From assembly GCF_003334815.1 (NCBI RefSeq), contig NZ_QOWO01000037.1: a stretch of DNA of 37,002 bases, one strand, 5' to 3'. This stretch comes from Escherichia coli. GTDB taxonomy: Bacteria > Pseudomonadota > Gammaproteobacteria > Enterobacterales > Enterobacteriaceae. The position numbers and the translations under genes were made by a program. The notes under the pieces were generated by a model. The model saw nothing but the letters and a program-made list of their open reading frames with translations. It did no database searches and was not told where the DNA came from. Positions 15,067 to 15,950 of the stretch are shown here, one piece after another. Numbering within the stretch: position 1 is the first letter of the stretch; each line of letters begins with the position of its first letter.

Positions 15067-15143
15067 GCGCCCTTAGCTCAGTTGGATAGAGCAACGACCT
15101 TCTAAGTCGTGGGCCGCAGGTTCGAATCCTGCAGGGCGCGCCA
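15067..15143 (+). tRNA. argU: tRNA-Arg (anticodon UCU, reads AGA/AGG)
   Basis: 77-nt sequence GCGCCCTTAGCTCAGTTGGATAGAGCAACGACCTTCTAAGTCGTGGGCCGCAGGTTCGAATCCTGCAGGGCGCGCCA with a 7-bp acceptor stem, D-loop AGCTCAGTTGGATAGAGC, anticodon loop CTTCTAA, T-loop GGTTCGAATCC and encoded CCA. Confidence 0.95.
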
Positions 15144-15188
15144 TTTCTTCCTCATTTATGCCCGTCTTATCCGTTTCCGCTTTGCCCT

Positions 15189-15950
15189 TCACCACATCAC
15201 TTTTTGTCGCTGTTTGGCGAGATAATTCAACGGTGTCAGGCCGTAAAACGCCTTAAAAACAGAGATAAAGTACGACGTGCTGCTATAGCCACATAATTGC
15301 GCCACCTGAGTGATATTTTTGTTATCCATCAATAACATCTGTACGGCGTAACGCATACGACACTCTGTGACAATCTGGCTATAGCTGGTATTTTCGTTTT
15401 TTAATTTCTTTTTGAGCAGGCTGGGGCTTAAACATAGCGAACTGGCGACAATTCGCAGATTCCAGTAATGCTGAATATCGCTTTGAATAATGCGGCAGAC
15501 GCTGTCGCGGACGCTGCTGCGTAAGATATACATCAGTAGGGCAATAAACCGCGATTGCTCAAGAAAGTTAGACAATACGGTAAAAAGCAATGCGCGCGTC
15601 AACTCCGCTTCGCAGGGTCTGCTGGGTTGCTGCTTGCTGTGGTTGGCGGCTAGCCGGAACACTTCCGGTGTACGGCTATGACAAGCGATAACCGGGGTTG
15701 CCAGCCGCGACCAGGGCTTTACACAGGTTAAGTTCTTATTTAAAAACAACAGATAATCGTTGATGATGTTACGGTTGATGTGGGTGATTAATACGTGATT
15801 TAACGTTGAGAGTTCAATGACGTTATTGTTGCACGCGAAGGCGGCCAGGTAGTTTTTCGGAAGGGTAAACGTAGCATGGTTATTGACGCTTACCTCTACC
15901 TCTTTTTCGGTCAGGATCACCACGCAAGGTTCACTGCTGCTCAATTGCAT
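15189..15950 (-). CDS. envY: AraC-family transcriptional regulator (EnvY-like)
   Basis: 253-aa ORF with a C-terminal AraC-type HTH region (...GYSSTSYFISVFKAFYGLTPLNY); AT-rich; position directly upstream of ybcH matches K-12 envY. Confidence 0.7.
   Translation of the reverse strand: MQLSSSEPCVVILTEKEVEVSVNNHATFTLPKNYLAAFACNNNVIELSTLNHVLITHINRNIINDYLLFLNKNLTCVKPWSRLATPVIACHSRTPEVFRLAANHSKQQPSRPCEAELTRALLFTVLSNFLEQSRFIALLMYILRSSVRDSVCRIIQSDIQHYWNLRIVASSLCLSPSLLKKKLKNENTSYSQIVTECRMRYAVQMLLMDNKNITQVAQLCGYSSTSYFISVFKAFYGLTPLNYLAKQRQKVMW

Follow-up and report, generated by a model that had tools for sequence, protein, structure and literature searches.

The window, by which we mean the whole stretch of 37,002 nucleotides of Escherichia coli DNA analysed here (contig NZ_QOWO01000037.1), contains one tRNA gene according to ARAGORN, a tRNA-Arg(tct) gene on the forward strand. 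A convergent gene for an AraC-family regulator follows it (Table 1). The tRNA folds into a cloverleaf with a UCU anticodon, and the gene has the K-12 sequence and the K-12 position after fimZ, which identifies it as argU, intact as the initial annotation had described it. To its left lie the sfm operon and fimZ, and to its right, beyond the regulator gene, ybcH, nfrA, nfrB and the cus genes; both sets are an exact match to K-12, where fimZ occupies the same position. The promoter-like site that precedes argU, a strong sigma-70-like match, is identified by its agreement with the consensus only, and the number of such sites in the region does not exceed the shuffled expectation.

Table 1. Features around argU in the window (positions are those of the window).
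Feature	Position	Strand	Evidence
fimZ, last gene of the bacterial left flank (B arm side)	14192..14824	-	ORF; annotated in genome 52F4 (segment 14290-14922)
Sigma-70 promoter-like site upstream of argU	15008..15035	+	TTGACT, 16 nt, TATAAT; 11/12 consensus matches
argU, tRNA-Arg(UCU), intact	15067..15143	+	ARAGORN; Rfam RF00005, 72.1 bits; same as K-12 argU in alignment
att core CTTCTAAGTCGTGGGCCGCAGGTTCGAATCCTGCAGGGCGCGCCATT, 47 nt, single copy; attB of IntD/DLP12-type lambdoid phages	15099..15145	.	Identity to the attL, attR and attP cores
Spacer of 45 nt, argU 3' end to envY stop codon	15144..15188	.	Same as the sequence after the K-12 attR core
envY, AraC-family regulator, convergent with argU	15189..15950	-	253/253 residues as K-12 EnvY; RefSeq envY in 100%-identical genomes
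ybcH, followed by nfrA, nfrB and cusS in continued K-12 synteny	16133..17023	-	ORF list; K-12 and 52F4 annotation

The regulator had first been described as envY-like. Its 253-aa product is identical over its full length to EnvY (b0566) of K-12, and the neighbours ybcH and nfrA are conserved, which rules out the reading that the gene is not envY. In the NCBIfam collection the protein gave only sub-threshold matches to AraC-family models, the best being GadX with 168.9 bits against a cutoff of 500, and its status as the EnvY ortholog therefore rests on the identity to the K-12 protein. Because that identity is complete, the comparison of gene order with K-12 is valid. The first two bases of the short spacer between argU and envY (TT, 15144-15145) belong to the att core, and with the bases after them the bacterial right arm (B') begins; a scan of the spacer for a terminator-like hairpin or a repeat found neither.

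In the MG1655 record the cryptic prophage DLP12 (564755-586056, 21.3 kb) lies between argU and envY. Its left end falls inside argU and its right end lies 91 nt short of the envY stop codon, with intD on the argU side, appY and ompT on the envY side and the lysis genes in between, so that the K-12 map given in the initial annotation was right. Alignment of the K-12 junctions and a scan for exact matches showed a perfect direct repeat of 47 nt at the two ends of DLP12, CTTCTAAGTCGTGGGCCGCAGGTTCGAATCCTGCAGGGCGCGCCATT, which extends from the anticodon loop of argU through its 3' end and includes two further T residues. The window holds one copy of this core. To the left of it the window corresponds base for base to the bacterial arm of K-12 attL, and to the right to the bacterial arm of K-12 attR, so that the two arms are joined through a single core with nothing gained or lost. 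The tRNA gene, the core and both bacterial arms are thus the same in the two strains, but K-12 is in the attL/attR state with DLP12 in place and the window in the attB state, without intD, appY or ompT.

Sequences belonging to the prophage were not found in the window. A blastn comparison with the interior of DLP12 gave no match, and tblastn with IntD and OmpT gave none either, so that the window has no coding capacity for these two proteins. AppY matched only the AraC domain of EnvY, with 44% identity over 96 residues. No second copy of the tRNA 3' end was detected in the window when its last 25 nt were searched with at most 5 mismatches, a local repeat scan found no repeat of the tRNA 3' end, and no insertion sequence is listed among the genes of 52F4, the closest genome. 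The earlier statements that nothing of DLP12 is present, and that the spacer has no integrase, insertion sequence or repeat of the tRNA 3' end, accordingly held up: next to argU there is no intD, no phage gene and no second core.

Exact copies of the 47-nt core were counted in other strains. One copy is present in O157:H7, as in the window, and two each in K-12, in strain EC05 and in strain DETEC-E223. The core is identical in all 47 positions between the window, both K-12 copies, EC05, DETEC-E223 and the phages 2G7b and Turner. DETEC-E223 carries at argU an apparently complete lambdoid prophage of 47.7 kb (segment 1727-49524), with a perfect 47-nt core at each end and with intD, regulatory genes, full head and tail genes, a hydrolase gene and ompT. 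At the right end this prophage shares 99.5% identity with the one in O121 strain RM8352 and only 97.5-97.9% with the one in K-12. The bacterial-side arms of this prophage agree with the window in 100 of 100 positions each, and the phage arms in only 16-31 of 100.

The corresponding phage site was found in free phages. When the intD gene with the core was compared with a phage collection, 25 records were retrieved, among them 2G7b (Nesevirus), ev243, Turner, Kati and the PhiR series, with integrase genes 99.2-99.8% identical to intD at the DNA level (99.7-99.8% for 2G7b and Turner). These phages have the same attP core as window positions 15099-15145, but on either side of it they carry phage arms (the ompT side and the int side) that are foreign to the window flanks. 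For 2G7b and Turner, the 100 nt on each side of the core agree in 99 positions with the phage-side arms of K-12 attR and attL and are unrelated to the flanks of the window. In the alignment of 2G7b attP with the attB of the window, identity starts and stops exactly at the two boundaries of the 47-nt core. Judged by sequence, the set of att sites expected from the Campbell model is therefore complete, with attP in the phages, attB in the window, and attL and attR in K-12, EC05 and DETEC-E223.

The gene order in both 2G7b and Turner is tail fibre, methyltransferase, alpha/beta hydrolase, omptin, core and integrase, which makes the omptin gene an immediate neighbour of attP and the integrase (2G7b segment 4625-7224; Turner segment 4623-7224). 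Since these are sequenced phage records, ompT is cargo of apparently live phages and not only a remnant in K-12. The annotation of Turner labels the attP core region as 'tRNA-Pro'. A search of the literature on 2G7b, ev243 and Nesevirus, and on lysogenic conversion by ompT, returned nothing relevant.

Taken together, we consider with high confidence that positions 15099-15145 of the window are an intact and unoccupied attB for lambdoid phages that use a tyrosine integrase of the IntD (DLP12) type, in agreement with the original proposal of an empty attachment site at a known integration hotspot. In attP, these phages have a 47-nt core that duplicates argU from the anticodon loop onwards, including the CCA-less 3' end and the TT that follows it. 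Exchange by the integrase inside the core would place the phage between the two genes argU and envY; the copy brought in by the phage would rebuild the tRNA gene at attL, and a 47-nt pseudo-tRNA fragment would stay behind at attR. By the same event the phage ompT gene, with appY or the alpha/beta hydrolase gene beside it, would land next to envY. In the present strain no insertion event is recorded, and the bacterial arms meet directly through the single core. That Int catalyses recombination within the core is suggested by the att geometry, by analogy with lambda- and P22-type tyrosine integrases and by published work on DLP12, and the existence of lysogens with identical flanks, K-12 and DETEC-E223, points to use of the site by the integrase in vivo.

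The arrangement would resemble P22-type integration into tRNA genes, in which int overlaps the 3' end of the tRNA gene: the phage supplies the 3' part that restores the tRNA gene, and in the attL considered here int starts 15 nt after the tRNA. The tRNA gene targeted is a different one.

Much of what is described above for the locus is already known, including the empty argU site, the polymorphism of DLP12, the 47-bp repeat and the link to ompT (PMC6379469, PMC5723341, PMC10057817). The attachment site of DLP12 was placed in argU by Lindsey et al. 1989, according to the passage of PMC10057817 that cites that work. A 47-bp attR has been described and strains lacking DLP12 have been reported (PMC6379469), and in the survey given there DLP12 was present in 74% of 638 genomes and hence absent from the rest.

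The flanks of the site were then compared between strains. Many complete genomes of human, animal and environmental origin agree with the window at 100% over the 25 kb compared (12003-37002), with 52F4 as the best match. Compared with K-12 MG1655, the stretch from about 12.7 to 21 kb, which spans the att site, has no real SNP on either side of it, and the same haplotype thus exists with and without DLP12. In the 6.5-kb right flank, 1 SNP separates the window from K-12 and 4 separate it from DETEC-E223, as against 50-85 for other strains. One flank haplotype is therefore found in three states, empty in the window, with a decayed 21-kb DLP12 in K-12 and, in DETEC-E223, with the apparently complete 47.7-kb prophage, relatives of which have been sequenced as free phages. 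This indicates that the argU site is in active turnover.

An empty site may be one that was never occupied or one that was vacated, the two alternatives of the initial annotation, and the site itself is compatible with both, since conservative site-specific recombination leaves no scar. Since attP, attB, attL and attR have one and the same core, excision would pass without a trace, and a search for a scar is uninformative on earlier occupation. We lean, without pressing the point, towards a flank haplotype that was never lysogenised in recent history rather than one that was cured. The occurrence of two different prophages, those of K-12 and DETEC-E223, on one haplotype implies an empty ancestor or intermediate like the window. 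Among the matches to a query spanning ompT, attR and envY, most natural isolates whose envY segment agreed with that of K-12 at 99.9-100% had an empty site. Furthermore, only 300 genomes have at least 80% of the K-12 DLP12, and the two listed examples, BM28 and a J53 derivative, are laboratory strains. The small number of genomes with a K-12-type DLP12, the mostly empty natural isolates and the prophage-less state of E. albertii (see below) agree with an empty intermediate.

The alternative that an ancestor with this haplotype lost DLP12 or a related prophage precisely is a substantial possibility, if the less probable one. Such a loss could proceed through Int/Xis or through RecA acting across the 47-nt repeats, and either route would regenerate a perfect attB. 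The absence of real SNPs relative to K-12 over about 10 kb on both sides of the site would fit recent loss from a K-12-like lysogen equally well, and the two K-12 cores, being perfect repeats, are substrates for either route. Excision of DLP12 in K-12 under overproduction of Hha is mentioned as cited work in PMC4632033, and for Shigella and enteroinvasive E. coli (EIEC) the same alternative, excision of DLP12 as opposed to never having had it, is considered open (PMC5723341). On the other hand, xisD of K-12 is a pseudogene, and the second, unrelated and apparently complete prophage on the same haplotype in DETEC-E223 requires an empty intermediate in any case. The mostly empty state of natural isolates with the envY allele of the window, and the confinement of K-12-type DLP12 to about 300 genomes, likewise speak against curing.

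It is unlikely that a block of roughly 10 kb around the argU-envY junction, empty site included, came from another strain by homologous recombination and took the place of an earlier allele. The window is indeed a mosaic relative to K-12: SNPs are essentially absent from 12.7-23 kb and 32-37 kb, whereas 1-12.7 kb has 5-28 of them per kb and 23-31 kb has 13-25 per kb, which is how recombination tracts show up. Such a mosaic shows that one lineage recombined, but neither which one nor the occupancy of the imported or replaced allele, and the identity of 12003-37002 to many natural isolates means that the haplotype is not unusual. Finally, an artefact, that is, a prophage missing because the assembly collapsed at the 47-nt repeat, or a misidentified envY gene, can practically be dismissed, as the same junction is present in 2497 complete and mostly closed genomes and the gene is K-12 envY followed by ybcH and nfrA; no point in favour of it was found.

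The initial annotation had left room for the doubt that reference genomes might also have envY directly after argU. Of 5426 complete E. coli genomes, 2497 (46%), O157:H7 included, have argU and envY joined without interruption, by a criterion of 80% coverage in one place that insertions of up to about 1.1 kb would also pass; K-12 has DLP12 in between. DNA resembling intD was found in 2942 of the complete genomes, an almost exact complement of the empty class. The unoccupied state that we assign to the window is thus an ordinary one, being shared by about 46% of the complete genomes and already described.

ompT was present in 3095 of the complete genomes and appY in 837 of the 5426 (15%). The K-12 arrangement ompT-attR-envY was found in 1583 genomes with the query spanning these three elements, and the remaining classes were extrapolated in proportion to rank from 60 rank-spaced rows and not counted. 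About 12 of the 60 rows were of the phylogroup B2 type, with ompT and the core but with envY deleted, and about 4 had ompT elsewhere, as in O157-like strains. In about 24, only the tRNA and envY matched, corresponding to an empty site and no ompT anywhere; this class includes strains with the envY allele of the window (26561, MIN12 and NCTC9104, each of which matched in one place only). Most genomes with an empty argU-envY junction appear to lack ompT altogether. In O157:H7 strain TR01 the argU site is empty, and a module of alpha/beta hydrolase and ompT genes lies in another prophage remnant beside minE, flanked by insertion sequences (segment 10334-12954).

The further suggestion that the host lacks OmpT and AppY is borne out at the level of the population only. 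Extrapolating from the 60 rank-spaced rows, the strain is very likely to lack OmpT, and most probably there is no chromosomal ompT or appY. Shigella and EIEC follow a similar logic at this locus, with no DLP12-type element at argU and hence no ompT; their lack of ompT was attributed to missing DLP12 by Nakata et al. 1993, as recounted in the review PMC5723341. In contrast to those organisms, the 37 kb of the window bear no Shigella/EIEC marks, and 12003-37002 is the segment shared at 100% identity with commensal, animal and environmental E. coli.

OmpT is an outer-membrane protease and a virulence marker, and its gene is an anti-virulence locus in Shigella. For the strain at hand the site matters little beyond bookkeeping, in that an annotator learns that no DLP12-type element is present at argU. 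The very probable lack of OmpT and AppY is relevant to the expression of protease-sensitive proteins, to resistance to antimicrobial peptides and to acid and anaerobic regulation, and the strain offers an open integration site to temperate phages of the IntD type. We put forward, tentatively and as something short of probable, that live IntD-type phages are at present carrying OmpT into strains like the one studied here, the window then representing a susceptible recipient and not a stable OmpT-negative lineage.

Outside E. coli, the type strain of E. albertii has argU next to envY without a prophage. In E. albertii NBRC 107761 the two genes are separated by about 720 AT-rich nt (segment 5470-6176) with an ORF of 160 aa (segment 5597-6079). 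This ORF had no match in NCBIfam, and neither an integrase nor a second core was found in the interval between envY and argU. In a scan for relatives of EnvY, E. albertii was the only species with argU beside envY, and no E. coli locus was returned; the scan covered one genome per species with exact-word peptide patterns, so that the absence of E. fergusonii, E. marmotae and others from it is not evidence. As to the missing E. coli locus, the GTDB representative is presumably a phylogroup B2 strain, of the type that has lost envY. Homologs of EnvY in Citrobacter, Kosakonia and Salmonella arizonae/diarizonae were 58-63% identical, with no argU within 6 kb, and are for this reason uninformative on the site.

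The phylogroup B2 type was examined in one genome, that of the uropathogenic strain UPEC 536. Its segment 6977-10640 comprises, in order, folD, argU, an integrase fragment, a tail-fibre-assembly fragment, a methyltransferase gene, ompT, an attR core, the end of envY and ybcH. The attR core is degenerate, with 5 mismatches in 47 positions, and envY is deleted except for its last approximately 50 nt; the sfm operon, fimZ and appY are also missing. The argU element of UPEC 536 looks old. As a general rule, the proposal that DLP12 is one ancient and vertically inherited insertion, and every empty site a loss, was not supported. Against it stand the structural diversity of prophages at argU, the low number of genomes, 300, that reach at least 80% of the K-12 DLP12, the differing deletion endpoints in EC05 and the existence of complete prophages and free phages.

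Several smaller differences from K-12 were noted elsewhere in the window. The divergence of 0.5-2.8% lies in the purK-sfmD part and in cusR-cusA/pheP. Near position 8199, in the folD-sfmA interval, there is a length difference of 9 nt, and in sfmD a 6-nt tandem duplication (GATTAC, 11504-11509) adds one Tyr-Asp repeat to the usher protein. At the start of sfmH (12656-12660) the window reads ATCAATGAAG, the ATG of which opens an SfmH of 335 aa, the length also annotated in 52F4 and O157:H7; K-12 has one G fewer (ATCAATAAG), which destroys this start, and its protein is annotated with 327 aa. In the cusC-cusF spacer (26019-26025) the window lacks about 130 nt that are present in K-12, and this extra K-12 segment, which contains CCCCAGTCACTTACTTATGTAAGCTCCTGGGGATTCAC, may be a repeat of the ERIC/IRU type. 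The end of the window (36750-37002) lies just past hokE, where an IS186/IS421 element follows at once in both 52F4 and K-12, and it may coincide with a contig end limited by this repeat.
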